Source of the DNA: an uncultured Chloroflexia bacterium
GTDB taxonomy: Bacteria > Chloroflexota > Limnocylindria > QHBO01
Direction: 5' to 3'
DNA: 64,000 nt
NCBI GenBank assembly: GCA_963814375.1
Contig: CAWFCQ010000007.1
Coordinates: 192,001-256,000 of the forward strand
Part shown: one piece after another, positions 2,361 through 26,037 of the stretch
Layout of the letters: each line of letters starts with the position of its first letter
Position numbering within the stretch: position 1 is the first letter of the stretch
Notes under the pieces: generated by a model
What the model was told of the DNA's origin: nothing
What the model saw: the letters and a program-made list of their open reading frames with translations, nothing else
Databases searched by the model: none
Made by a program: the position numbers and the translations under genes

Positions 2361-2611
2361 GGGGCCACCGGTGCTTTGTATTTCAAAGGATACGGCCAGC
2401 GGGCGCGCGGCGCGCCGTGTGTAAATCTGGAACGCGGTGGAAGGTCTCGCCGTGAGATCGACCGGATCGCGATGGTCCGCATCGGTGCGGTGCGGTCTCG
2501 GGCTGACGTAGGTAAGCCCGCGCATAGCCGGAACGGTCACTCGCCGAGCAAGCCCGCGGCTCGTACCGTCATCGGCGTTGGAGCCAGCCGTCTGACACGC
2601 GAAAGGGACCG

Positions 2612-12082: not shown

Positions 12083-12481
12083 TCAGCGCTCGCAGCAGGC
12101 GTCGATGATGGCGCTTGCGAACTCTTCCGGCGCAGCGCTCTTGCTGACGTAGGTCCTCGACACGCCATCGATCAGCGAGTGACCCTCGGCGTCGCTCCAG
12201 CCGGTGAGAATGATGCGCAGCGACGGCCTCGCGCGGCTTAGCCCGGTGACGAGGGCCAGTCCCGCCTCGATGTCGGGCAAGCGTGGGTCGACGAGGACGA
12301 CGTCGGGGCTGACGCGGTCGACCTCCTCCAACGCGGCACGCACGTCGCCGGCGCGACCGACGACGTCCACCTCACCGGCCACGCCGAGGAGGTCCGCGAG
12401 GCTCTGCTGAACGCGGCGATCGGCATCGACGATCACCACCCTCGGGGGTGAGGGCACAACGTGACGCGCGGTTGCCGGCAT
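12083..12481 (-). CDS. Stand-alone response regulator receiver (NarL-type REC) protein
   Basis: RVVIVDAD...PDVVLVDPRLP...IILTG..YVSKS; no output domain. Confidence 0.8.
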   Translation of the reverse strand: MPATARHVVPSPPRVVIVDADRRVQQSLADLLGVAGEVDVVGRAGDVRAALEEVDRVSPDVVLVDPRLPDIEAGLALVTGLSRARPSLRIILTGWSDAEGHSLIDGVSRTYVSKSAAPEEFASAIIDACCER

Positions 12482-12539
12482 GCGAAGAGGATATGACGCG
12501 CGCCGGCCCGGTCGCGACGGCGCGATGGCGCAGCGGCGG

Positions 12540-12554
12540 CTACGTCATTCGGCC
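12540..12554. promoter_or_regulatory. Conserved 15-bp box, copy A (CTACGTCATTCGGCC)
   Basis: Identical to 17721-17735. Lies upstream of the REC gene and overlaps the kinase stop codon. Confidence 0.6.
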
Positions 12555-15500
12555 GAGCCGTCGGCCGGCACGGCCGCCTCGATCGTCGTCCCCTCGCCCG
12601 CCTCGCTCTCGACGCGCAGCTCCCCGCCGACGAGGTCCACCCGCTGGCGCATGCCGATCAGGCCGAGGTGGCCGCGCGGCACGTCCTCCGGCTCGAATCC
12701 CGCGCCATCGTCGATCACCGAGAGGAGCACGCGGTCGCCGTCGCGCCAGATCTTGATCGTCGCGTTCGACGCGTTGGCGTGCTTGACCACGTTGTGGAGC
12801 GCCTCCTGGCCGATGCGGTACAGGGCCTCCTCGGCCGCGAGCGGCAGCCGGTCGATCGGCTCGGCGTCGATCACGATCACCAGGCCCGTTCGGCGCTGGA
12901 CCGCGGTGGCGTGGGTGCGCAGCGCCTGGACCAGGCCGTCGGACTCGAGCGAGGACGGCCGCAGCTCGAAGATGAGCGTGCGCATCTCCGCCAGCGCGTC
13001 CTTCTGGAGCTCCCGCAGCTCGACCAGCTTCCCCCGGGCGGCCTCGTCGTCGGTGCCGAGCAGGAGCTCGAGCGTGCGCAGCGTGAGCCCCATGCTGAAC
13101 AGCGCCTGGGTGACGGAGTCGTGGAGCTCGCGTGCCAGGTGCGCGCGCTCCTGGCTGGCGGCCAGCTCGGCCGCCTGGCTGCGGAGGTCGCCCTCGAGTC
13201 GCTCGCGTTCGCTGATATCGCGGACCGAGCCGTGCGCGCCGGCGAATCGACCGTCGGCAACGGTCCCGGTCATCGCCACCTCGGTCTGGGCAACGCGACC
13301 GTCGGGAAGCGGCAGGTCGAGACGGACGCGCTGCTCGCGGTTGGGATTGGTCTGCAGGGCTTCCCACGCCTCCGCCGCCGCAGCCAGCGTCGACTCGCCG
13401 GCGAGGGCGGTAAACGGCTGTCCCAGCAGCTGCTGAGGCCGCCAGCCGGTGCGCGACTCGAGGGAATCGGAGAAGAAGGTGAAGCGGCCATCGGCGTCGA
13501 CGCTCCACACGATGTCCGGCGAGTTGTCGACGAGATGCCGGTATCGGCGCTCGGACTCCTCGACCTCGGCGTAGAGGCGGGCGTTGGTGAGCGCGATGGC
13601 CGCCTGGTCGGCGAGGAGGCTGAGCAGCTCGGCGTCATCGGCGCCGAACGCGTTCGGCTCCTGTGCCTGGATCGTGATCGTACCGATGAGCCGGTCGGGC
13701 CCGAGCAGTGGCGCCGACATCATCGAATGGATCTCCTGCGCCTCGATGCGCGCGTCGCCCTCGTCGTGCGGGAACCCCTCGTCCGACAGGTAGTCGCCGG
13801 TCCAGCGCACGCGGCGCTCGGCGGCTGCCATGCCGGCGATGCCGGACCCGATCGGGACGGTCACGTCATCGGGCGAGGGTGGGATCGGGGCCGCGGCGAT
13901 CGGACGATCGAGCCGCTGGGAGTCGTCCGCAAGCAGGTTGACCTGGGCACGGTCGGCGCGCAGGAGGCGAGCGGCGTCGGCGACGGCGCGCTGGATGACC
14001 GTCATCGGATCGTGGAGCCCGGCGATCTGGGCGGCGATCTCGGCGAGCGACCGCTGCGCGTCCACGCGCCCGCGCAGCTGCTCGACGAGGCGAGCGTTGG
14101 TGATCGCCACCGCGGCCTGGGTGGCGAACAGCTGCACCAGCTCGAAGTCCGCCTCGCTGAATGCGACCTCGGTGCCACCCGAGCGGCTGATGTTCATGGC
14201 CCCGACCACGTCGTCGCCGGAGATGAGCGGCACGACGATGATGGCCTCCTCCTCGACCGGCGTGTTCGGGATCTGGAGGAGCCGTGGATCGCCGAGGGCC
14301 TGGTCGAGCATGGCCGGCTCGCGGTGCTCGATCGTCCACCACGCCAGTCCGCTGCCGCGCGGCACCGGGAAGCCGAGCACGGCGTCGGCATTCCGATCGC
14401 GGGCGAGGATCGGCTGGAGGAACTGTTCGGAGTCGTCCATCCGGTAGATGCTGAGGTTGTCGTACCACACGACGCTCTTGAGACCGTCGGCGATGAGCTC
14501 CAGCACGCTCGCCGGCTCGAGGGTCGACAGCAGCCGGCGGTTGATCTGGAGGAGGCGGCGCTGGGAGTCGGTCTGGCGCTCCAGCGCCGCGGACTCCTCT
14601 CCCAGCTGCTCGTAGAGGCGCGCGTTGGTGACGGCGATGGCGGCCTGGCTGGCGAGCACCTCGAGCAGCTCCGCGTCCGAAGGATCGAACGCGTCGCGCG
14701 CCTGCGAGTGGACGGTCAGCGAGCCGATGGCACCCTCGTCGCCGATGATCGGCGCGCTCATCACCGAGCGTATGCCGTGCTGACGGATGTACCGGTCCGG
14801 AGCCTCGGCGTGGATGAAGCCCTCATCGGTGAGGTAGTCGCCGGTCCGCACCACGCGGCGCTCGTGCACGGCTCGGCCCGAGACGCCCTCGTCGGCGGCG
14901 AGCACCGCCTCGCCGGCGCCCCGCTCGATGGGCAGATCGATGGCCGAATGGCCGAAGGCCCAGGTCAGCCCACCCTCCTCCTCGGAGACGAGCTCGATCC
15001 GGCCGCCGTCCGCGTCAAGCAGGCGCACCGCCTCGTCGAGCGTGCGCTGAAGGACGTCTCCGGGGTCGCGGATGGCGGTGATCCTGGCGGCGATCTCGCC
15101 CAGCGAGCGCTGCGCCTCGACCCGGCGCTCGAGCTCCTCGTACAGCCGGGCGTTGCCGAGCACGATCGCCGCCTGGCTGGCGAGAGCGCCGATGAGCTGC
15201 GAGTCGTCTTCGTCGAACGCGTCGCCACGCGACGAGTAGGCGCTGATCGCCCCGAGCGGGCCCTCCTCTCCGATGAGGGGAGCGCTCATCTGCGAGCGGT
15301 AGCCGAAACGGGTGATCCACTCGTCGGCCTTGGTCGTGTGCGGGAAGGAGGTATCGGCGAGGTAGTCGCCGGTCCAGGCCACCGTCTGCTCCGAGATGGC
15401 GCGGCCTGCGATGCCCTGGCCGATGCTGACGGTCACGTCGTCGGCGGGCGGCGTGTCGGGACCGACGTTGAAGTGCTCGCGATAGTCGGCCAGCTCCAGG

Positions 15501-17680
15501 GTCCCAGGTCGCACCTGGTGGATGATCACGTGATCGGCGTGAAGCAGTCGCTTCGCCTCGTCGATGGTGCGGGACAGCACCGCCGAAGGGTCGCGCAGCG
15601 AGGTGATCGCCGCGGCGATCTCACCCAGCGAGCGCTGTGCCTCCACCTGGTGCGCCAGCTGATCGGCGGTGACCTCGGCCTCGGCGTTGAGGCGGGCGTT
15701 GGTGAGCACGATGGAGGCCTGGTCAGCGAGGAGGCGGAGAAGCTCGCCGTCGTCGGCGTCGAAGGCGCCCGGACGCTTGGCGTAGACCCCGATGGCGCCG
15801 ATCGGCTCGCCCTCGGCGAGCAGCGGCGCCGCGATGACGGCACGGATCCCGAGACGCCTCACCTCGTCGTCCGACGGCGCATCGTGCGTGAAGGTCGTGT
15901 CGGCCAGGTAGTCGTCGGTCCACGCCGCGGCGCGTTCGCGGACCGCGCGGCCGGAGACGCCGTTGTCGACCTGGCTGTGGTCCTCCTTCCTGAACGCGAC
16001 GCGGTGCCCCCCAACCAGCGAGTGTCCGTCGCCCCAGCGCACGACGCCCTCGTCGTCGGTCATGACCATGCCGATCTGACCGCCATCGCCCTTCAGGAGC
16101 CGGGCAGCGGCGCGGAGGGTGTGGGTCAGAACCTCCGAGGGGTCGCGCAACGATGTGAGCTGCGCCGCCATCTCGGCCAGAGTGCGCTGCGCCTCGACCC
16201 GATCGGCGAGCTCGGCGGCCTGGGCGCGCAGGTCCTCCTCCAGCCGGGCGATCTCGGTGATGTCACGGTTGGTGCCGTGGGCGCCGACCATGCGGCCCTC
16301 GGAGTCCACGATGCCGGTGCCGCGGATCTCGACCGGCAGCAAGCTGCCGTCCTTGCGCGGCTCCAGGATGCGGAGCCGATAGACCATCTCGGGATGCTCC
16401 TGGAGGCCGGCGAAGGCGGCCTCGACGACCGGCATCGACTCGGGCGCGGTCGCCATCGAGACATGCTCCCCGATGAGCTCGCTCGGCCGGAACCCCGTCA
16501 GCCGCTCGACGCTGTCGCTGATGTAGGTGAACCGCGCCTCCGCGTCGACGGACCACATGATGTCGACCGACTCGTCGACGAGGAAGCGATAGCGCTCGCG
16601 TGAGCGCTTCAGCTCCTCCGTCAGGCGGGCGTTGCCGATCGCGATCGCGCCCTGGTCGGCAAGCCCCTGGAGGAGCGCCAGCTCGTCCTCACCGAACCGA
16701 TGCGGCCGCTCGAAGGAGACCGCCAGGGTGCCCATCACCTCGCCCTCCGCCGCACGCAGCGGCGCCGCCGCCATGCCACGCAGCTCGAGACGCTCGGCCA
16801 CCGACTGGTCGGCCGGCTCGTGCGGAATGCGCGGATCGACGAGGTAGTCCTCGGTGGCGATCACGGTGTTGCCTCCCGCCGCGAGGCCATTGATACCCTC
16901 GTTCAGCGGGAATTCGAGCTGCGCCAGCCAGTCCTCGGTCCAGGCCTCGTTGCCGCCGACGACCACGGTCGGCCTCAGGAACCTGCGCCCCGGAACGACC
17001 AGCGTGAGGTGCGCACCGTCCGACCCGATCAGCCGCCTGGCGGCGTCGACGACCGATCGCAGCACCTCGTCCGGGTCGCGGATCACCGCTATCCGGGCGG
17101 CGATCTCGCCCAGCGTGCGCTGCGCGTCGACGCGCTTGGCCAGCTCGGCCTGGGAGCGGGCGAGGCGATCGATGAGGCGCTGGTTGGCGATCGCTCCGGC
17201 GGCATGGTCGGCGAGCGCCTGGAGGAGCGCGAGCTCCGCCTCGTTGAAGTCATCGATCGTGGACGAGTACGCCCCGAGCGCGCCGAGCACCTCGCCCTCG
17301 GCGATCAGGGGCGCCGCGGCCATCGACCGCATGTTGGCGATGAGGACGATGCGGTCTGCGACCGCTGAATGGTCGAAGCGCTTGTCGCGCCGATAGTCGC
17401 CCGAAACCACGAGCTCGCCGGTCTCTGCCGCGTGGCCGAAGAGGCCGACGCCGATCGGCAGCACGAGGTCGCGGATGAGCTGCTGCGCCTCGGGATTGCG
17501 GATACCGGCGTCCACGGCGAAGCGCATCTGGCCGTCGTCGACGAGATAGACCATGGCGCCGTCCGCCTTCAGGAGGCGGGCCGCCTCCTCCACCGCATGC
17601 TCGAGCAGCGCCCGGGTCTCCGCCAAGTCGGAGCTGGGGAGCGACGATATCGGCTCGGATCGGGTGGGTGCGCGGGTCAT
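12545..17680 (-). CDS. Soluble multi-sensor histidine kinase: 7 GAF, 2 PAS, HisKA_3, HATPase
   Basis: Repeated GAF ends (APL..GxxxG.L...F...D.ELL..LA.QAA.A..NARL), two PAS starts (RYR.LVD.S.DI.WSVDA), H-box ARELHDSVTQALF, QEALHNVVKHA, DDGAGF, GHLGLIGMRQR. Confidence 0.93.
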   Translation of the reverse strand: MTRAPTRSEPISSLPSSDLAETRALLEHAVEEAARLLKADGAMVYLVDDGQMRFAVDAGIRNPEAQQLIRDLVLPIGVGLFGHAAETGELVVSGDYRRDKRFDHSAVADRIVLIANMRSMAAAPLIAEGEVLGALGAYSSTIDDFNEAELALLQALADHAAGAIANQRLIDRLARSQAELAKRVDAQRTLGEIAARIAVIRDPDEVLRSVVDAARRLIGSDGAHLTLVVPGRRFLRPTVVVGGNEAWTEDWLAQLEFPLNEGINGLAAGGNTVIATEDYLVDPRIPHEPADQSVAERLELRGMAAAPLRAAEGEVMGTLAVSFERPHRFGEDELALLQGLADQGAIAIGNARLTEELKRSRERYRFLVDESVDIMWSVDAEARFTYISDSVERLTGFRPSELIGEHVSMATAPESMPVVEAAFAGLQEHPEMVYRLRILEPRKDGSLLPVEIRGTGIVDSEGRMVGAHGTNRDITEIARLEEDLRAQAAELADRVEAQRTLAEMAAQLTSLRDPSEVLTHTLRAAARLLKGDGGQIGMVMTDDEGVVRWGDGHSLVGGHRVAFRKEDHSQVDNGVSGRAVRERAAAWTDDYLADTTFTHDAPSDDEVRRLGIRAVIAAPLLAEGEPIGAIGVYAKRPGAFDADDGELLRLLADQASIVLTNARLNAEAEVTADQLAHQVEAQRSLGEIAAAITSLRDPSAVLSRTIDEAKRLLHADHVIIHQVRPGTLELADYREHFNVGPDTPPADDVTVSIGQGIAGRAISEQTVAWTGDYLADTSFPHTTKADEWITRFGYRSQMSAPLIGEEGPLGAISAYSSRGDAFDEDDSQLIGALASQAAIVLGNARLYEELERRVEAQRSLGEIAARITAIRDPGDVLQRTLDEAVRLLDADGGRIELVSEEEGGLTWAFGHSAIDLPIERGAGEAVLAADEGVSGRAVHERRVVRTGDYLTDEGFIHAEAPDRYIRQHGIRSVMSAPIIGDEGAIGSLTVHSQARDAFDPSDAELLEVLASQAAIAVTNARLYEQLGEESAALERQTDSQRRLLQINRRLLSTLEPASVLELIADGLKSVVWYDNLSIYRMDDSEQFLQPILARDRNADAVLGFPVPRGSGLAWWTIEHREPAMLDQALGDPRLLQIPNTPVEEEAIIVVPLISGDDVVGAMNISRSGGTEVAFSEADFELVQLFATQAAVAITNARLVEQLRGRVDAQRSLAEIAAQIAGLHDPMTVIQRAVADAARLLRADRAQVNLLADDSQRLDRPIAAAPIPPSPDDVTVPIGSGIAGMAAAERRVRWTGDYLSDEGFPHDEGDARIEAQEIHSMMSAPLLGPDRLIGTITIQAQEPNAFGADDAELLSLLADQAAIALTNARLYAEVEESERRYRHLVDNSPDIVWSVDADGRFTFFSDSLESRTGWRPQQLLGQPFTALAGESTLAAAAEAWEALQTNPNREQRVRLDLPLPDGRVAQTEVAMTGTVADGRFAGAHGSVRDISERERLEGDLRSQAAELAASQERAHLARELHDSVTQALFSMGLTLRTLELLLGTDDEAARGKLVELRELQKDALAEMRTLIFELRPSSLESDGLVQALRTHATAVQRRTGLVIVIDAEPIDRLPLAAEEALYRIGQEALHNVVKHANASNATIKIWRDGDRVLLSVIDDGAGFEPEDVPRGHLGLIGMRQRVDLVGGELRVESEAGEGTTIEAAVPADGSAE

Positions 17681-17720
17681 TGCGGTACGAGAGGATACGC
17701 CATCGGCCCCCGCGGCTGGC

Positions 17721-17735
17721 CTACGTCATTCGGCC
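17721..17735. promoter_or_regulatory. Conserved 15-bp box, copy B
   Basis: CTACGTCATTCGGCC between the divergent kinase and membrane-protein genes, followed by a second inverted repeat ATCCG-N9-CGGAT. Confidence 0.65.
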
Positions 17736-17881
17736 CATCCGGACTCGGCACGGATGCCGGGTATGGCGTCGCGCACCTGCCGGATTCGGCGCGCGTTGCG
17801 CTCCGGCGAGACTGAGGCCATCGAAATGACAGACCGATGCCGATCCACGGCGTCGCCAACGACCTGGAGGTTCACCGCACG

Positions 17882-18313
17882 ATGTCCGCGATCTTCCGCA
17901 GCCGCACCTTCGGCGCCGTCCTGACGGTCGCCATCGTCGGCCTGACCCTCGCCACCGCCTACATCCACCTCAGCCTCGGCGGCATGCTCTTCACGCTCAA
18001 CGGCCTCGGCTACCTCGGCCTCGCCGCCCTGATCGTGATCGGTGCCGCGGCGCCGATGCCGATCGTCGAGCGCTTCAGCTGGTTCCCGCGCGTCGCGCTC
18101 ATGGGCTACGCCGCGCTCACCATCGTCGGCTATCTGGTGATGGGCCCGTACTTCACCCTCGGTTTCATCGCCAAGGGCGTCGAGGTCACGCTGATCGCCC
18201 TGCTGGTGGTCGACATCTTCCGGGTCTACGGCAGCCCGATGGGCCTGGTCCGCACCGCCCTCGACTCGGTCGAGCCGATCATCCCGGATCGGTTCCGCCC
18301 GACCGCCGCCTAA
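17882..18313 (+). CDS. Hypothetical 4-TM membrane protein
   Basis: GGAGG RBS, strong GC3 bias, motif LATAYIHL...FTLNGLGYL...K.VE. Confidence 0.8.
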   Translation: MSAIFRSRTFGAVLTVAIVGLTLATAYIHLSLGGMLFTLNGLGYLGLAALIVIGAAAPMPIVERFSWFPRVALMGYAALTIVGYLVMGPYFTLGFIAKGVEVTLIALLVVDIFRVYGSPMGLVRTALDSVEPIIPDRFRPTAA

Positions 18314-18325
18314 CCTCTCTCCCTC

Positions 18326-18360
18326 ACGCCCCGTCCGGGTCCTCCGGGCGGGGCGTTTTC
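18326..18360 (+). terminator. Rho-independent terminator
   Basis: Stem ACGCCCCGTCCGG / CCGGGCGGGGCGT followed by TTT, between convergent genes. Confidence 0.8.
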
Positions 18361-18379
18361 GTGCCTGCGGGGCGCAGCC

Positions 18380-19612
18380 TCAGACGAGCTTGTGCTCGAC
18401 GGCGTAGAGGGCGGCCTGGGTGCGCGAGGCGAGGCCGAGCTTGCCAAGGATGTTCGAGACGTGGGTGCGGGCCGTGCGCTCGGTGATGCCGAGCTCGTAG
18501 GCGATCTCCTTGTTGGAGGCGCCCTTCGCGAGCTGCGAGAGCACCTCCTTCTCGCGGCCCGTCAGCGGCTCGACCGGCTCCGCCTCCTTGCGCTGCCGCA
18601 TGCGCTGGGCGAGCAGGCGCGAGACGGCCGGATCGAGGTGCACCTCGCCGTTGTAGGCCGCGCGAATGGCCTGGGCGACCTCTTCCGCCTCGGCGTCCTT
18701 GAGCAGATATCCCGACGCGCCGGCCTCGAGTGCCGACGTGACCTTCTCCTCCTCGATGAACGAGGTGACCGCGACGATCTCGATCTCGGGGTGGGCCTGC
18801 TTGATGGCGGCGATGGCCTCCAGGCCGCCCATCTCGGGCATGAGCAGGTCCATCAGGATGACGTCGGGAACGAGCCGGTCGGCCGCGGAGACACCCTCAC
18901 GACCATTCTCCGCCTCGCCCACCACGTCGAAGTCCTTCAGCAGCTCGAGAAAGCCTCGCAGGCCTCGACGGACGACGGCATGGTCGTCCACGAGCAGCAC
19001 CCGGATCGGCCCTTCTTCGTCGGTCACGCTCTGGATTCCCTGCCTCGCATCGGGTTCGTCTGGCGCATCGGCTGATCGCGCGCGGGAAGTATGCACCAGC
19101 GCAAAGACCCGTTCCGGCTCGGGCACGTCACGCAGTCGCTGGGTGCCAAGGTCGCGCAGGATCGTGCTGTCGGGCAGGAAGCCACCGAGCTCCGCAACCG
19201 TGGTGGCCGCGAGGAACGTCTCTCCCCCGTTGGCCAGGCCCTGGAGTCGGGCGGCCCGGAAGAGCGGCCTGCCGTAGTACCGATCGCCGCGAACCTCGAC
19301 GTCGCCGCTGACGATGGCAATGCGGATCCGCATCCGCCCGATGGCACCCCAATCGTGGTCGGCGATCGCGGACTGGAGCGCGTCGGCGGCGGCCACCGCC
19401 GACGGCGCATCGGTGAAGCACGAGTACGCCCCGTCGCCGATCCGCTCGAACAGGATGCCCCCGTGGCGACCTGCCGTCTCCGCCACGAGCTCGTGGTAGC
19501 GCGACAGCGCGGCGCCGGCTTCGGCACCGTGTTCCTCCATGAGGCGCGTGCTGCCCTCGACATCGGCGAACAGGAAGCTGAGGTGCTTCGTCTCGGGGGT
19601 GGGGTGATCCAC
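18380..19612 (-). CDS. Class III nucleotide cyclase-like domain fused to a NarL/LuxR response regulator (REC plus HTH)
   Basis: FLFADVEGST...IGDG...RAARL...LRDVPEPE.VF, then IRVLLVDDHAVVRRGL...DVILMDLLMP, then LTGREKEVL...SNKEIA..HVSNILGKLG. GTG 19612 is preceded by TATCCT plus 6 nt. Confidence 0.9.
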   Translation of the reverse strand: MDHPTPETKHLSFLFADVEGSTRLMEEHGAEAGAALSRYHELVAETAGRHGGILFERIGDGAYSCFTDAPSAVAAADALQSAIADHDWGAIGRMRIRIAIVSGDVEVRGDRYYGRPLFRAARLQGLANGGETFLAATTVAELGGFLPDSTILRDLGTQRLRDVPEPERVFALVHTSRARSADAPDEPDARQGIQSVTDEEGPIRVLLVDDHAVVRRGLRGFLELLKDFDVVGEAENGREGVSAADRLVPDVILMDLLMPEMGGLEAIAAIKQAHPEIEIVAVTSFIEEEKVTSALEAGASGYLLKDAEAEEVAQAIRAAYNGEVHLDPAVSRLLAQRMRQRKEAEPVEPLTGREKEVLSQLAKGASNKEIAYELGITERTARTHVSNILGKLGLASRTQAALYAVEHKLV

Positions 19613-19633
19613 GCGCGAAGGATACCGGCGGCG

Positions 19634-19648
19634 GGCCGAATGACGTAC
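19634..19648. promoter_or_regulatory. Conserved 15-bp box, copy C (GGCCGAATGACGTAC)
   Basis: 14/15 match to copies A and B in the reverse orientation; between the regulator and two small ORFs. Confidence 0.62.
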
Positions 19649-19760
19649 GCGCGCATCGGCGCAAGATCGCGGGCCGATGCGGGACCGCCCGCCGACGCGT
19701 CGAGCACGCAGTGGGTGCACCATCAGAGCATCAGACAACCAACAGAAAGGAGGCAGCACG

Positions 19761-19961
19761 ATGTTCCTGGCATACGGCGCGCTCGCGCTCTCACCCACCG
19801 ACGTCTTCGCGCAGCCTCCGCATCGGCCGAGTCGGTCGGAACGGAGGTCGCAGGGGGACGGCGGAGTGTCCCACCTGGTCCAGTCGTTCCACCGCACGGT
19901 GGCCCAGGCGACTGATGCGTCCCTTTCCTGGCTTCCCCGCATCAGCCGCTACCCGTACTGA
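19761..19961 (+). CDS. Small hypothetical protein (66 aa)
   Basis: Very strong RBS AGAAAGGAGG; MFLAYGALALSPTDVFAQPP...LPRISRYPY. Confidence 0.7.
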   Translation: MFLAYGALALSPTDVFAQPPHRPSRSERRSQGDGGVSHLVQSFHRTVAQATDASLSWLPRISRYPY

Positions 19962-19996
19962 GCCACTCTCGATCATCTGACACGGAGGTCAGACCG

Positions 19997-20176
19997 ATGC
20001 ATCCCCTCGGAGCACTGATGCTCTCGCGCTACATGGAAGACCAGCGCGACGCCGCGCTCGAGCGCCGGCGGCGCAGCCACCAGCAGAAGGAGCCGAGCAC
20101 CCGCGCGGTTCGCGCTGGAGCATGGTCGGCGATCCTCGAGTTCCCTCGATTCAGGGCTGCCGGCTCCAAGAGCTGA
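19997..20176 (+). CDS. Small hypothetical protein (59 aa; below the ORF-track cutoff)
   Basis: CGGAGG RBS; MHPLGALMLSRYMEDQRDAALERRRRSHQQKEPSTRAVRAGAWSAILEFPRFRAAGSKS. Confidence 0.6.
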   Translation: MHPLGALMLSRYMEDQRDAALERRRRSHQQKEPSTRAVRAGAWSAILEFPRFRAAGSKS

Positions 20177-20194
20177 GCGCCTCCCCAGCCGATG

Positions 20195-20218
20195 CGCCCG
20201 GGCCCTCCGGCCCGGGCG
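20195..20218 (+). terminator. GC-rich hairpin, probable terminator of the small-ORF transcript
   Basis: Perfect 10-bp stem CGCCCGGGCC-ctcc-GGCCCGGGCG with only a weak U-tract. Confidence 0.55.
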
Positions 20219-20252
20219 TCGTCGTGCCCGCCCGGCGGGCTATCCTCGCCGG

Positions 20253-21620
20253 GTGACGCGTCCCACCCTCTCCGGCACGCCCGACGCGGTCCCGACGGTC
20301 GAGCTGTCGGAGCTGCTCGACGACGGCAACCTCGAGCTCATCGACCGATGGCTGGCCCAGGCCGACGTCGTCGAGATCGCGGACGAGCTGTCGCGCGTGC
20401 CGCGCGAGCAACGCGCGGTGCCGTTCCGCCTCCTGGCACGCGATCGTGCCCTCGAGGTGTTCGAGGCGCTCGATCCCTCGCTCCAGCAGGAGCTGCTGGA
20501 GGGCCTGCGCGAGCAGAACGTTCGCCAGCTGTTCGAGGAGATGGATCCCGACGACCGGGCACGCCTCACCGAGGAGATGCCGGCGAAGGTGGCGCGCCGC
20601 CTGCTGGCCGGCCTCTCGCCGAACGAGCGGCGCCTCACCGCGACCCTTCTCGGCTACCCGGAGGACTCGGCCGGCAGGCTCATGTCGCCCGAGGTCGCCA
20701 GCCTGCGAGCAGGGATGGCCGCGGGGGAGGCGCTCGACCGGCTGCGCCGCATCGGGCGCTCGGCGGAGACGATCTACGCGCTGCCGGTCACGGACGACTA
20801 CCGGCGCCTGGTCGGCGTGCTCGGTCTGCGCGACCTCGTCCTGGCCGATCCGGCCACACAGGTCGGCGAGCTGATGGACACGGAGGTCTACTCCGCCCGC
20901 GTCGACACCGACCAGGAAGAGGCAGCCCGGCTGATGCGCGAGGCGGACCTGCTGGCCCTGCCGATCGTCGACAGCGAGGACCGCCTGGTCGGCATCGTCA
21001 CGGTCGACGACGCGATGGAGGTCCTCGAGGAGGAGGAGACGGAGGACCTTGCACGCGCCGGCGGCGCGGAGCCGTTGGGTCGTCCGTATCTCGCAACGTC
21101 GATCCTCCAGATCGCCCGCTCGCGCGTCGTCTGGCTGCTCGTGCTCATCGTCGCCGCGACCCTCACCGTCAACGTCCTGAGCGCGTTCGAGACGACGCTG
21201 AACCAGGTCGTCACGCTCGCGCTGTTCATCCCCCTCGTGATCGGCACCGGCGGCAACACCGGCTCGCAGGCGGCGACCACCGTCACCCGCGCGATCGCCG
21301 TCGGTGAGGTGCGGTTCGACGACCTCGGCGTCGTCGTGCTGCGCGAGGCACGCGTCGGGCTGCTGCTCGGCGCCATGCTCGGCGTGCTGGCCTTCGTCCC
21401 TGCCTGGCTCTTCGTGGGCAGTAGCATCGCCATCGTCGTCAGCCTGACGCTGCTCTCGGTCTGCACGCTGGCCGCGCTGGTCGGCTCTCTGCTTCCCCTC
21501 GTTGCGCGCCGTATCGGCGTGGACCCCGCGGTCATGAGCGCTCCGTTCATCACGACCCTCGTCGACGCGACCGGGTTGGTCGTGTACTTCCTCATCGCGC
21601 AGGCGGTGCTGGGGTTGTGA
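20253..21620 (+). CDS. mgtE: Magnesium transporter
   Basis: MgtE N domain, YPEDSAGRLM CBS pair, GIVTVDD, GGNTGSQ, APFITTLVDATG. Confidence 0.95.
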   Translation: MTRPTLSGTPDAVPTVELSELLDDGNLELIDRWLAQADVVEIADELSRVPREQRAVPFRLLARDRALEVFEALDPSLQQELLEGLREQNVRQLFEEMDPDDRARLTEEMPAKVARRLLAGLSPNERRLTATLLGYPEDSAGRLMSPEVASLRAGMAAGEALDRLRRIGRSAETIYALPVTDDYRRLVGVLGLRDLVLADPATQVGELMDTEVYSARVDTDQEEAARLMREADLLALPIVDSEDRLVGIVTVDDAMEVLEEEETEDLARAGGAEPLGRPYLATSILQIARSRVVWLLVLIVAATLTVNVLSAFETTLNQVVTLALFIPLVIGTGGNTGSQAATTVTRAIAVGEVRFDDLGVVVLREARVGLLLGAMLGVLAFVPAWLFVGSSIAIVVSLTLLSVCTLAALVGSLLPLVARRIGVDPAVMSAPFITTLVDATGLVVYFLIAQAVLGL

Positions 21621-22189
21621 GCGAACCCGCCCGCTGCGCGTGGGCGACGAGCGACCCGATCTACATCGCGTACCACGACGAAGAGTGGGGCGTGCCGATC
21701 CATGACCCTCGCGCCCTGTTCGAGCTCCTCTGCCTGGAGGGCGCACAGGCCGGGTTGGCGTGGATCACGATCCTGCGCAAGCGTGACGCCTACCGCTCCG
21801 CCTTCGACGGGTTTGACCCTGAGCTCATCGCCGCCTATACCGATGCCGATCGGGCGCGCCTCCTGGCCGATGCAGGGATCGTGCGCAACCGCTCGAAAGT
21901 GGATGCCTTCATCGGCAACGCGCGAGCATTCCTCGAGATCGACGACTTCGCGCACCTGGCCTGGTCGTTCGTCGACGGCGAGACGATCCGGAATCGCTGG
22001 CGCTCGGTCGAGGAGGTGCCTGCCGCGACGGGCGCCTCGCAGGCAATGTCTCGAGGCCTCAAGGCGGCTGGCTTTCGGTTCGTCGGTCCCACGATCTGCT
22101 ATGCGTTCATGCAGTCGGCCGGGCTCGTCAACGACCACGTGGTCGGATGCTTCCGCCACGCCCAGCTGAGGAAGATTTCTCCCCGCTGA
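21617..22189 (+). CDS. tag: DNA-3-methyladenine glycosylase I
   Basis: RCAWA..YHDEEWGVP, LEGAQAGLAWITILRK, FVGPTICYAFMQSAGLVNDH. Confidence 0.95.
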   Translation: MSEPARCAWATSDPIYIAYHDEEWGVPIHDPRALFELLCLEGAQAGLAWITILRKRDAYRSAFDGFDPELIAAYTDADRARLLADAGIVRNRSKVDAFIGNARAFLEIDDFAHLAWSFVDGETIRNRWRSVEEVPAATGASQAMSRGLKAAGFRFVGPTICYAFMQSAGLVNDHVVGCFRHAQLRKISPR

Positions 22190-22238
22190 AGCTGGCACGC
22201 GGCGTGCTGCGAGGTCGCCAACCGCGCACCGTGAACGG

Positions 22239-24155
22239 ATGAGCGCACTCGAGCTGATCAGCCTCGCCAACCAGGTGCTGTTCCTCGGCCTCTTCGTGGC
22301 CGTCCTGTGGCATGCGTTGAAGCGGCCATCGCGATCGGCCTGGGACACCGTCCTCCTGTTCGGCCCGATCGCGGCCGTCGTCGTGCTGGCACCGATCGCG
22401 ACAGTTATCGGGGTCGGGGATGCGCCATGGTTCGTGAGTCTCCAGCTCCTCCTGATCAACGTCGTGCCGTTCGCGATGATCAGGCTGGTCGATGACTTCA
22501 GCCGCACGCCTCGATGGCTGGTGCCTGCCGGGGCAATCGGCCTCGTCGTGGTCGGCGCGCTGGGCTTCACGGCCTTCGGGGCCGACCAGCGCCTGTTCGA
22601 CATCGTGACCATCGCCTGGTTCACGATCGTGGGCGGCTTCTCCGCCGTCGCCTTCAGCCGACGAGCAGTCGAGGCCCGAGGCATCACGCGCAGGCGAATG
22701 ACCGCGGTCGCCGTCGGCGCGATGCTCTTCGTCGTGGCGGTCGTGGTCATCTTCGCGAACGCGCTCCTGCCCGCAGTGGACCTCGGGCTGATCGTCCAGC
22801 TGTTGGCGCTGGCTGCTGCCATCGGCTTCTTCCTTGGCTTCGCCCCACCAGCCTGGATTCGCCGCGGCTGGCGCGAGCCCGAGCTGCGGCGCTTCCTCGA
22901 GCGATCCATTCACCTGGTCGGCGCGACGGATGAGCGACGTGCGGTGATGGAGCTCCAGACGGCCGCGGCGGCGGCTTTCGGCGCCAACGGCGCCGCAATC
23001 GGCCTGGCGGACGATGAGCGCCGGATCATGCGCTATCTCGATCGAACCGGCATCTGGGCGGAGTATCCGCAGGACGCCTTCGTCGGTGGAAGGGCCTACC
23101 GAGAGCAGCGGCGCATCGTGGCGGCCGATGCGGCCACCGAGGACCCGGAGAACGCGGGCGTTTACCGACGCAGCGCCGCGGACGCGGTCATCGCCGCGCC
23201 GATCACGCTCGAGGACCGGCCGATCGGCGTGCTGACCGTCTACGCCGAGCGAGCGCCGATCTTCGTCGAGGACGACCTGTGGCTGCTGGAGCTTCTCGCG
23301 GACCAGACCGCGGTCCTGCTCGAGGCGCGCCTCCGTTCGGCGGACGAGGCAGATCTGCGGGCGAGGGAGGACTCCGCTCTGCTCAAGGAGGAGTTCCTCT
23401 CCGCCGCGGCGCATGACCTGCGAACGCCGCTCACCGTCGTGCTCGGCCAGGCCGAGCTGCTCGAGCGCCGGCTGGCCCGCGACCCGGCGGCGCCGGTCGA
23501 CGCCGCGGGCGTGGCACGACTCGGCCGAGAGGCCCGCCGGCTGCGGGACATCGTGAGCGAGCTGCTCGACGCCCAGCGCCTGGAGCAGGGGGGCGCGGTC
23601 ATCGACCTGGAGCAGACCGATCTGCGTGGCATCGTCGAAGGGGTGCAGCAGCGCCTCCACGAGCGCGGCCTCGACCTCCGCGCCGACGTGCCCAACGACG
23701 AGCTGATCGGGCTGGTCGACGCGGCGCGCATCGGCCAGGTCCTCGACAACCTCGTCGAGAACGCGATGAAATACACCTCCAGTGGCGAGCTCCCGGAGCT
23801 GCGCCTGGACGCCGTCGACGGCGATGCGAGGTTCTCGGTCATCGATCGGGGGATCGGCATCCCGGAGGACCAGCGCGAACGCATCTTCGACCGCTTCTAC
23901 CGCGCCACCAACGTCCAGAGCATCACCGACACCGGGATCGGGCTCGGCCTCTACATCTGCCGCCGCATCACCGAGGCGCACGGCGGCCGGATCTGGGCGG
24001 AGCCGACGCCGGGCGGCGGAAGCACCTTCGTCGTGGCCCTGGCCCTCCAACCCGCCATCCAGCGATCAGGCTCCGGAGACCGGCAACCCTCGCAGACGTC
24101 GGACCCGATCATCAGCGTCGAGCCGGCCGGCGAGGGAGCGGTTGCGGATGCCTGA
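22239..24155 (+). CDS. Membrane sensor histidine kinase (about 7 TM, GAF, HisKA, HATPase)
   Basis: Seven hydrophobic segments, AAHDLRTPLT, NLVENAMKY, DRGIGIP, GLGLYI. Confidence 0.92.
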   Translation: MSALELISLANQVLFLGLFVAVLWHALKRPSRSAWDTVLLFGPIAAVVVLAPIATVIGVGDAPWFVSLQLLLINVVPFAMIRLVDDFSRTPRWLVPAGAIGLVVVGALGFTAFGADQRLFDIVTIAWFTIVGGFSAVAFSRRAVEARGITRRRMTAVAVGAMLFVVAVVVIFANALLPAVDLGLIVQLLALAAAIGFFLGFAPPAWIRRGWREPELRRFLERSIHLVGATDERRAVMELQTAAAAAFGANGAAIGLADDERRIMRYLDRTGIWAEYPQDAFVGGRAYREQRRIVAADAATEDPENAGVYRRSAADAVIAAPITLEDRPIGVLTVYAERAPIFVEDDLWLLELLADQTAVLLEARLRSADEADLRAREDSALLKEEFLSAAAHDLRTPLTVVLGQAELLERRLARDPAAPVDAAGVARLGREARRLRDIVSELLDAQRLEQGGAVIDLEQTDLRGIVEGVQQRLHERGLDLRADVPNDELIGLVDAARIGQVLDNLVENAMKYTSSGELPELRLDAVDGDARFSVIDRGIGIPEDQRERIFDRFYRATNVQSITDTGIGLGLYICRRITEAHGGRIWAEPTPGGGSTFVVALALQPAIQRSGSGDRQPSQTSDPIISVEPAGEGAVADA

Positions 24156-24510
24156 CGTCCGCGTGCTGATCGTCGACGACGAGCCGGACATTCGGGCGAC
24201 GGTGTCGGCAATGCTCGAGATCGAGGGCTACGCCGTGGCCGAAGCCTCCAACGGAGCCGATGCACTGCGGCTCGTCGAGGAGCGCCCGCCCGACATCATC
24301 CTGCTCGACATGCGCATGCCGATCCTCGACGGCTGGGGATTCGCGGCCGAGCTGCGAAGGCGGGGCCACCGGACGCCGATCGTCGTCATGACGGCCGCGC
24401 GTGACGCCGCGCGCTGGGCCGCCGAGATCGCGGCCACCGCCTTCGTGGCGAAGCCATTCGGGTTCGAGGACCTCATCAGGGCCGTGCAGCAGGTGCACCC
24501 GCCCGCCTGA
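24148..24510 (+). CDS. Single-domain response regulator (CheY-like)
   Basis: VLIVDDE, DIILLDMRMPILDG, VMTA, KPF. Confidence 0.92.
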   Translation: MPDVRVLIVDDEPDIRATVSAMLEIEGYAVAEASNGADALRLVEERPPDIILLDMRMPILDGWGFAAELRRRGHRTPIVVMTAARDAARWAAEIAATAFVAKPFGFEDLIRAVQQVHPPA

Positions 24511-24529
24511 GCACGCGGTGGTGCCTGGG

Positions 24530-25000
24530 TCAGGTCGCCATCGCTCCGCCGCGCTCCCAGCCCCGCCCGCCGTACCCGAGGAAGCGCGTCGGCTTCAGGA
24601 CGATCGGTTGGGAGTAGACCTCCGCGAAGCGCTGAGCGGAGAGGCCGGCGCGATGGAGCAGCTCTCGGTACTTCGCACCGAACCCACTCGGCATGAGGCT
24701 CGAAGCCGGGGTGTCCGGCAGCTCGGCGGTGGCCTCGATCAGCTCGACCTCGAACTCGGGACCGGGCGTCCCGACCGCCAGCATGACGCTCGGGCTGTTG
24801 CGGAGGTTGTCCACCTTCTTTGCGTGCGGCTTGCTGAAGGCGACGATCGTGTCACCGTCCCAGTGGAACCAGACGGGCACGAGGTGCGGTCGCCCGTCGG
24901 CCTGCACCGAGCTGAGCCAGACGACCGGGTCGTTGCGCAGGGCGGCCTCCGCCGAAGGGCGGCAGCTGGCCTGGTCGGATGGCTGGGCGGAGCGGTTCAT
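24530..25000 (-). CDS. PPOX-class F420-dependent oxidoreductase (Rv3369-like)
   Basis: VVWLSSVQADGRPHLVPVWFHWDG...KVDNLRNSPSV. ATG 25000 is preceded by GACACT plus 7 nt. Confidence 0.85.
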   Translation of the reverse strand: MNRSAQPSDQASCRPSAEAALRNDPVVWLSSVQADGRPHLVPVWFHWDGDTIVAFSKPHAKKVDNLRNSPSVMLAVGTPGPEFEVELIEATAELPDTPASSLMPSGFGAKYRELLHRAGLSAQRFAEVYSQPIVLKPTRFLGYGGRGWERGGAMAT

Positions 25001-25083
25001 GGCCGAGAGTGTCGCAGCGCCGCTGCGCCGGACCCAGCGAGAGACGTCGCATGGCCGACCGGACGTTGGCCGATGGTCGATGC

Positions 25084-25098
25084 GGCCGGATGACGTAG
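25084..25098. promoter_or_regulatory. Conserved 15-bp box, copy D (GGCCGGATGACGTAG)
   Basis: 14/15 match; adjacent related box TGGCC-GATG-GTCGA at about 25067-25080. Confidence 0.6.
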
Positions 25099-25122
25099 GG
25101 GCGACCCTATACTCCGCCACGC

Positions 25123-26037
25123 ATGCCGCCCATCGCCAGCGTCGACGTCCCCGCCTCGAGCGCCAACCTGGGCAGCGGATTCGACTGCTTCGCGGCGGCC
25201 CTCTCGCTCAAGATGCGCGCCGAGCTGTGGCCCGGCGACGAGCCCGGCATCGTGCTCAACGCGCGCGGCGAGGGCGCCCCCGCCGACGATGAACGGCCGG
25301 ACGACAACCTCCTGATCCGCGCCTTCCGGGAAGGGCTGCGCGTCTCGGCGGCACCCGGGGCGGCGGCCTGGAGGGTCGACGTCTCGAGCATGATCCCGGC
25401 CGCTCGCGGCCTGGGCAGCTCCGCGGCCGCGATCGTGGCGGGCGCGGTGCTCGGGGCGGCCGTCGGCCGCCGCAGCGTGGATGCCGACGAGCTGCTGCGG
25501 CTGGCTGCGCGGCTGGAGGGCCACCCCGACAACGTCGCGGCCGCGCTGTACGGGGGCTTCACCGTTGCGCTCGCCGAGCCCGACGGGCACATCGGCCTGC
25601 GCCGGTTCCGGGTGCCCGAGGCGTGGATCCCGGTCGTCTTCATCCCGCAGCGCGAGAGCAGGACCCAGGAGATGCGGGCCGCGCTCCCGGCGGCCGTGCC
25701 CCACGCCGCCGCGGCTCGCCAGGCGGGCCGCAGCGCACTGCTGGCGACGGCCGTGATCACGTCCGATGCCGGCCTCCTTCGCGCGGCGATGCGAGACGAG
25801 CTGCATCAGCCCTTCCGCCTGCCGCTCCTGCCCGGCGGCCGCGAGCTGATCGACCTGGCCTACGAGCGCGGGGCGGCTGGTGCCTGCCTTTCCGGCGCCG
25901 GCCCGGCCATCCTCGCCATCTGCGACTCGCCGCCGAGCGCTCACGCGGTCGAGAAGGCGTGGAACGCCGCCGGAGTCATGGGCATGGCCACGCGGCTGCG
26001 CTTCGACACCTCGGGAGCGAAGCTGGAGGCCGCCTAG
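25123..26037 (+). CDS. thrB: Homoserine kinase
   Basis: [37 protein letters not shown]. Confidence 0.95.

Follow-up and report, generated by a model that had tools for sequence, protein, structure and literature searches.

We analysed a 15-bp box that recurs in a 64,000-nucleotide window of the genome of an uncultured Chloroflexia bacterium (assembly GCA_963814375.1, contig CAWFCQ010000007.1, positions 192,001 to 256,000). The box is conserved in a group of uncultured Chloroflexota, where, as judged from genome comparison, it marks some ten promoters, which a single two-component regulator probably activates. The candidate is a NarL/LiaR-type protein encoded at 18380-19612 of the window, in the same locus as a soluble sensor kinase, and it carries a cyclase-fold domain in front of a receiver (REC) and a LuxR-type helix-turn-helix (HTH). 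Taken as a whole, we consider it likely that the box is the primary operator of this regulator, that activation occurs from phased positions and that the regulator gene gives rise to two forms of the protein.

The initial annotation had listed two identical copies of the box and two copies with one mismatch on the other strand, and all four were found (boxes A to D, Table 1). The whole genome (2,517,584 bases) has no further match with one mismatch or none, and all four lie within this locus. Every copy had been placed in a promoter region; box A, however, is not purely intergenic, as the stop codon of the kinase gene (12545-12547) falls within it. With a matrix derived from 120 sites in other genomes, 13 matches of at least 18 bits were obtained in this genome, whereas 30 column-permuted control matrices gave 0.67 on average (maximum 6). 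Nine of these 13 are promoter-proximal, a class that makes up 6.5% of the genome according to our own simple gene caller, and the other four lie inside genes, so that the comparison of coding with intergenic DNA shows an enrichment of the box near promoters. The TGACGTA core is invariant among the 120 sites, which is partly imposed by the site selection. Folded on itself, the motif forms an asymmetric 7-2-7 inverted repeat, with T, G and C kept in both halves, a strong half-site TACGTCA and a weak half-site resembling TCGGCCG; this dyad is a predicted NarL-type operator, supported by the genome comparison.

We then examined 80 related loci that bear the regulator, mostly labelled Limnocylindria or Chloroflexota, counting boxes at up to three mismatches. 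The box was present upstream of the F420-type oxidoreductase gene in 20 of the 20 loci examined, upstream of the cyclase start in 22/29 and upstream of the gene for a four-transmembrane (4-TM) protein in 42/60. The check upstream of orthologues suggested by the initial annotation thus found the box kept at these three promoters in Limnocylindria.

The distance from the box centre to the predicted -10 hexamer is 31, 54 or 77 bp, in steps of 23 bp. With a hexamer that begins at -12, the box centres fall at about -43, -66 and -89. In the close loci, the measurement was partly guided, as the search window and the hexamer pattern were set for each promoter class. There, the spacing was 30-31 bp for a GH38 alpha-mannosidase gene (12/12 box-bearing loci), 53-56 bp for the REC gene (23/23 orthologues with a box), 53-54 bp for a gene encoding a 40-aa membrane microprotein (6/8 box-bearing loci), and 76-79, 75-78 and 76-79 bp for the 4-TM gene, the F420-type gene and the microprotein operon (24/30, 18/19 and 22/23 orthologues). 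The promoters of the kinase (53-56 bp in 20/30 orthologues) and of the long form of the regulator (29-31 bp in 17/23) are also often on this ladder. In an unguided test on distant REC promoters, 18 of the 22 that bear a box have it at 53-55 or 76-78 bp, in both orientations. Weaker dyads score best at +23/24 (REC, 15/23) and at +47/48 (4-TM, 20/30; F420-type, 12/19), although the signal is modest. Most -10 hexamers of the far (77-bp) class lack the first T; the three such hexamers pointed out initially (GAGACT, CACCAT and GACACT) are present, and such hexamers are common in the orthologues. A tandem of phased boxes whose proximal member lies near -43 would form an activation ladder like that of DosR, a reading that rests on predicted -10 hexamers. 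Many genes of the window seem leaderless, their start codons being preceded at 5-8 nt by TATCCT, TATACT or TAGGCT.

The thrB promoter is off the ladder, with the box 18-19 bp from its -10 in 18/19 orthologues. Together with the proximity of box C to the long-form -10 in this genome (15 bp), this would fit a regulator whose main effect at the box is to repress the divergent promoters that are nearer to it (long form, thrB and kinase). However, the distances to the kinase and long-form hexamers vary, whereas those at the 4-TM, microprotein and F420-type promoters are fixed; 12 of 35 thrB promoters have no box, and six of these, among the loci listed, have no F420-type neighbour; and it is the distal promoters that have non-consensus -10 hexamers. 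Hence, we regard repression as highly improbable. The asymmetry of the motif, with one invariant half, could instead point to a promoter element of an alternative sigma factor, but the box works in either orientation and at any of three distances from the -10, which is impossible for a -35 element, and we give this explanation hardly any weight.

The distribution of the box points to the regulator of this locus as the protein that probably binds it. In 200 other genomes of the class, at least two strict boxes were found in 41 of the 62 genomes with the regulator, compared to two of the 138 without it; this is our own tally, given with no P value as related genomes are not independent, and it includes one unpublished genome with the regulator and four boxes (G144), without which the count is 40/61. 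In the home family, the box occurs in 39/39 genomes with the regulator and in 8/30 without. A HisKA_3 kinase is encoded in the regulator's locus here and in most relatives.

Pfam identifies a receiver (Response_reg) and a LuxR/GerE-type HTH (GerE) in the regulator, whose closest relatives are LiaR, VraR, NarL and DevR; the REC-LuxR part is 53% identical to LiaR and 48% to VraR. In a structure model of the 410-aa protein, the cyclase domain is folded and is followed by a disordered linker, the REC and the HTH. The initial annotation had taken the cyclase-REC-LuxR protein as the activator. The regulator does co-occur with the box, but 48 of the 80 related loci have no cyclase in front of it and many of these still carry boxes, so that the regulon can do without the cyclase part. 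A predicted promoter and start within the fusion gene suggest that a short REC-LuxR form of 215 aa is probably the activator in everyday use. At the end of the cyclase region, five codons are frozen in 25 sequences (CAT in 25/25 and ACT in 25/25), while the codons upstream vary freely; in this genome, CAT has a share of 0.23 among His codons and ACT of 0.026 among Thr codons. The -10-like CATACT is kept in 31/32 loci, and a ribosome-binding site with an in-frame GTG, TTG or ATG start follows in 32/32, this window counted. The element also occurs in three loci without a cyclase (L005, L027 and L039). Two further features were sought at this internal promoter: a -35 of the extracytoplasmic function (ECF) type was rejected, as the codons there vary, and no dyad signal was found at 31, 54 or 77 bp that would indicate control by the box, a weak dyad at 33 bp coinciding with a conserved protein motif.

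The regulon could be right with a single form of the regulator, either the fusion alone or the short form, with what is left of the cyclase acting on its own. Four loci (L004, L005, L012 and L027) lack the cyclase or have a reduced one, and L024 has it out of frame, so that it is dispensable. Against this, it is in frame with REC-LuxR in 31 of the 32 loci that have it, across linkers that come in eight lengths between 69 and 120 bases, each divisible by three (one frameshift-rich assembly gives 94), and the fusion is found in 120/120 database homologues listed. Moreover, three cyclase-less loci retain the internal -10 and ribosome site, as the fusions do. A single form is thus unlikely in our view, and the simplest reading is an internal promoter and start for the 215-aa form inside a maintained 410-aa fusion. 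In a quick-search tree the fusion clusters, with about five changes needed. In L004, L005, L012 and L027, the cyclase and the microproteins seem to have been deleted, with the regulator remaining in all and the internal -10 in three.

We propose that the soluble kinase, with seven GAF domains and a HisKA_3 domain, phosphorylates the receiver, and that the phosphorylated dimer would bind the 7-2-7 repeat and spread to weaker sites every 23 bp. A dimer at about -43 could recruit RNA polymerase, by analogy with DosR, and a rising signal would then turn on promoters requiring one, two and three dimers in turn. The predicted targets are the kinase, the single REC, the 4-TM protein, the microproteins, the F420-type oxidoreductase, the GH38 mannosidase and further small proteins. 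The single REC is a probable phosphate sink that would damp the response. The internal promoter would provide a box-independent short form that probably primes the circuit, and the box-adjacent upstream promoter a long form, equipped with a cyclase domain of the guanine-nucleotide type, that probably adjusts the feedback. The targets and the DosR-like design suggest a response to stress or dormancy.

Several observations weigh against this proposal. The internal promoter has no constrained -35. Box C, 15 bp from the long-form -10 here, is 7 or 16-17 bp from it in 6/23 orthologues, and this variable distance implies that the long form is not uniformly activated. A box is absent from 15 of the 37 distant REC promoters examined; the secondary sites score weakly, and their +23 peak is also seen towards thrB in 6/19. 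In family f3, 10 of 23 regulator-bearing genomes have a strict box and 13 do not. Finally, the genomes in which box and regulator co-occur are kin, and at least five other NarL-type regulators are encoded in this genome, so that we infer the assignment of the box to this regulator from position and co-occurrence. These last two points would equally suit control of the locus from above by a different box-binding regulator of this lineage, whether a NarL paralogue or some unrelated factor, as co-occurrence among kin can reflect shared ancestry. One genome, G009, has boxes but no regulator; however, the whole 20-kb region is missing from it, housekeeping genes included, which points to an assembly gap and led us to reject it as a counter-example. 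Same-family genera without the regulator (g14, g16 and g22) have one box in 21 genomes, and regulator-less genomes still hold many NarL-type candidates. Control by such another regulator is therefore very unlikely. G022 was also discarded as a counter-example, as it has a gene in three pieces.

The proposed targets in the window, namely the REC gene, the 4-TM gene, the two microproteins and the F420-type gene, are on the spacing ladder, but the limits of the window proved too narrow for the regulon, which has members elsewhere. From the listed matches in relatives, we retrieved the surroundings of 40 that are not in the main cluster: 12 boxes stand before the GH38 alpha-mannosidase gene, about ten before the 40-aa gene, three before a gene for a 128-aa membrane protein and two before a gene for a 63-aa protein, while two are the REC site itself and the others are scattered or in genes. 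Outside the window, this genome has boxes at the genes for the GH38 mannosidase, the 40-aa and the 63-aa protein, at another 63-aa open reading frame (ORF) and at an SRPBCC gene; none was found at its 128-aa membrane protein gene. Beyond boxes A to D, five sites in this genome sit on the ladder, and four of them recur in relatives. The ATP synthase operon was rejected as the target of the site at C3:221771, where the box tracks the divergent SRPBCC gene (5/11 loci with it, 0/7 without). A paralogue of the 4-TM gene (C2:68683-69072, 60% identity, near a cytochrome oxidase cluster) has no box. In five related loci (L094, L109, L096, L102 and L111), single or paired boxes precede unnamed small ORFs that are possible lineage-specific members.

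The ORF at 2612 had been considered as a further target on account of a weak copy of the box (copy E). This copy is present as described (10/15) but is not conserved at its position, where the orthologues mostly read CCGTTGGTAA. Of 21 orthologous loci fetched, 20 could be scored and two had a strong box, 105 and 111 bp from the -10 and hence off the ladder. By this comparison, copy E is a chance variant of a different conserved promoter element and, as placed, falls outside the regulon; it thus fails the check upstream of orthologues that the initial annotation had suggested. The promoter concerned (2440-2612; L130-L151) belongs to a genus-restricted 123-aa ORF and has its own conserved elements, GGTCCGCATCGGT, CCGTTGGTAAGG and TAGCCGGAACGGTCACTCG, which precede a TACCGT -10 and are probably sites of another regulator.

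The cyclase domain matches the fold of the class III cyclases Rv1900c and Ma1120 in the structure model (TM-score about 0.9 to the target), and the metal aspartates (D17 and D60 motifs; 120/120 homologues listed) and the catalytic arginine are kept. The adenine-specifying Lys/Asp pair and the transition-state Asn are absent from the domain. Here, the pair is replaced by Glu56/Arg111 and the Asn by Phe118, with Glu in 120/120 of the homologues listed and Arg with Phe or Tyr and the catalytic Arg in 117/120. Mycobacterial cyclase-LuxR fusions carry an ATPase domain; here, in contrast to these and to Rv1900c and Ma1120, the cyclase is fused directly to a receiver and an HTH. Ma1120 is active without the Asn, and its K101E substitution moves activity towards GTP, according to the part of that study covered here (PMC4215837). 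Synthesis of cGMP by the domain is possible, if tentative, while nucleotide binding or dimerisation without much catalysis stands at close to an even chance. It is more doubtful that the feedback-controlled long form is a transcription factor and a GTP-reading or cGMP-making enzyme in one, whose product or nucleotide state feeds back to the multi-GAF kinase and grades the output of a microprotein regulon that has one, two or three boxes per promoter. Thirteen other proteins of this genome match the cyclase domain, a large class III set for 2.5 Mb.

The closest parallel in design is DevR (DosR) with DevS/DosT of Mycobacterium tuberculosis, likewise a NarL-type regulator with a soluble GAF kinase. 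In the sections consulted of one account (PMC3177182), DevR promoters have two to four phased boxes with a strong primary site and are activated, tgs1 has boxes at -42.5 and -63.5, and divergent promoters share boxes; the strong primary box, weaker phased neighbours and shared divergent promoters are alike here. DevR is described in part of another (PMC13486717) as recruiting RNA polymerase via sigmaA R4 and alpha. The two systems differ in the half-site (GGGACT there, TACGTCA/TCGGCCG here; PMC3177182, same sections) and in the period, which is 21 bp at tgs1 and 23 bp here. Furthermore, a single-box promoter seems to exist here (GH38), the kinase has seven GAF and two PAS domains, the targets are mostly microproteins, and the regulator has a nested cyclase-fused form. 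Among the nine matches of the kinase there was no DosS or DosT GAF domain; of these two sensors, the ATPase domain of DosT alone was matched. LiaR and VraR are the closest solved relatives of the REC-LuxR part, and the LiaFSR and VraSR systems have, as here, a HisKA_3 kinase and small membrane proteins among the targets. Their kinase is membrane-anchored, whereas the present one is GAF-led and apparently soluble, and no LiaF- or PspA-type Pfam match was found among the 34 and 13 proteins scanned. By the features compared, the system is distinct from those of DosR and LiaR. Two N-terminal forms made through an internal start are also described for CheA of Escherichia coli, in the portion of the source used (PMC13515050); there, a kinase is trimmed by an internal start codon, whereas the present gene apparently uses a second promoter to make a transcription factor with or without an enzyme-fold domain. 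A literature search, mostly of open texts and without the motif itself as a search term, returned nothing describing this system, which we regard as an undescribed regulon of known NarL-type design with an unusual nested regulator. It would provide an uncultured Chloroflexota lineage with a regulon defined from sequence and with predicted start sites, indicates several unannotated microproteins as real co-regulated genes and offers, in the 23-bp ladder, a natural test of box number against threshold in NarL-type activation. The nested two-form regulator with a guanine-type cyclase, if true, would connect two-component with cyclic-nucleotide signalling in an unusual way.

Table 1. Features of the locus, with positions in the 64,000-nucleotide window. 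Distances are from the box centre to the -10 hexamer; roles and start sites are predicted.
Feature	Position	Strand	Remarks
Weak copy E	2497-2511	+	10/15 match; matrix score 3
REC gene, leaderless	12083-12481	-	Single-domain receiver; Pfam Response_reg; predicted activated target, possible phosphate sink
-10 TATCCT, REC gene	12488-12493	-	55 bp from box A
Box A	12540-12554	-	GGCCGAATGACGTAG; centre near -67; weaker second site about 24 bp downstream; overlaps kinase stop codon
Soluble sensor kinase	12545-17680	-	Pfam: 7 GAF, 2 PAS, HisKA_3, HATPase_c; H-box ARELHDSVTQ
-10 TATCCT, kinase gene	17692-17697	-	32 bp from box B
Box B	17721-17735	+	Common to the divergent kinase and 4-TM promoters
-10 GAGACT, 4-TM gene	17808-17813	+	Non-consensus; 78 bp from box B
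4-TM membrane protein	17837-18313	+	No Pfam family; predicted target
Regulator, long form, 410 aa	18380-19612	-	Class III cyclase-fold domain (7-174), disordered linker (177-200), REC, LuxR HTH
Regulator, predicted short form REC-LuxR, 215 aa	18380-19027	-	Internal GTG at 19027; start placed by conservation
Internal ribosome-binding site GCAGGGA	19037-19043	-	Purine-rich site and in-frame start in relatives
Synonymously frozen element	19087-19102	-	GCGCTGGTGCATACTT; -10-like CATACT (19093-19088); predicted internal promoter
-10 TATCCT, long form	19619-19624	-	15 bp from box C
Box C	19634-19648	+	Between regulator and microprotein operon
-10 CACCAT, microprotein operon	19718-19723	+	Non-consensus; 78 bp from box C
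Microprotein 1, 66 aa	19761-19961	+	Conserved PR..YPY-like C-terminal tail; no family
Microprotein 2, 59 aa	19997-20176	+	MHP...RRR type; no Pfam family
PNPOx/F420-type split-barrel oxidoreductase, leaderless	24530-25000	-	Pfam PNPOx_N; predicted target
-10 GACACT, F420-type gene	25008-25013	-	Non-consensus; 76 bp from box D
Box D	25084-25098	+	Weaker sites about 23 and 47 bp towards the oxidoreductase; 18 bp from thrB -10 (25108-25113)

Among the other genes of the locus, the kinase has a core whose closest solved structure is DesK, and its Pfam domains run from a GAF at residue 23 through GAF and PAS domains up to this core. The kinase frame ranges from fewer than 900 to more than 2400 codons in the 80 related loci (L001-L080), with the H-box kept and some of the short values coming from frameshifted assemblies, and whole GAF/PAS modules seem to have been gained or lost among relatives. 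The 4-TM protein matches unnamed Chloroflexota clusters, and its gene is divergent from the kinase in most related loci listed; small ORFs similar to microprotein 1 stand behind ribosome sites in relatives. Atlas searches gave no name for the 4-TM protein or microprotein 1. In two runs of one soil RNA sample, low-difference contigs cover the genes for REC, the 4-TM protein, both microproteins and the F420-type oxidoreductase, with both microproteins on one contig (19741-20185). This is a weak hint of expression, as the runs share 9-10% of words, the contigs give neither strand nor start and DNA carry-over is possible; the low cover over the cyclase part and the kinase carries no weight.

Many distant relatives (L042-L080) have the order 4-TM, kinase, REC, regulator, without a cyclase; the regulator of close relatives is fused to the cyclase and located across the 4-TM gene. 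Elsewhere in the window, an EamA transporter gene and a PNPOx-like gene (963-2360) seem broken into several frames, and a second two-component pair without a box (22239-24510), consisting of a membrane GAF-HisKA kinase and a single REC, is absent in several relatives.

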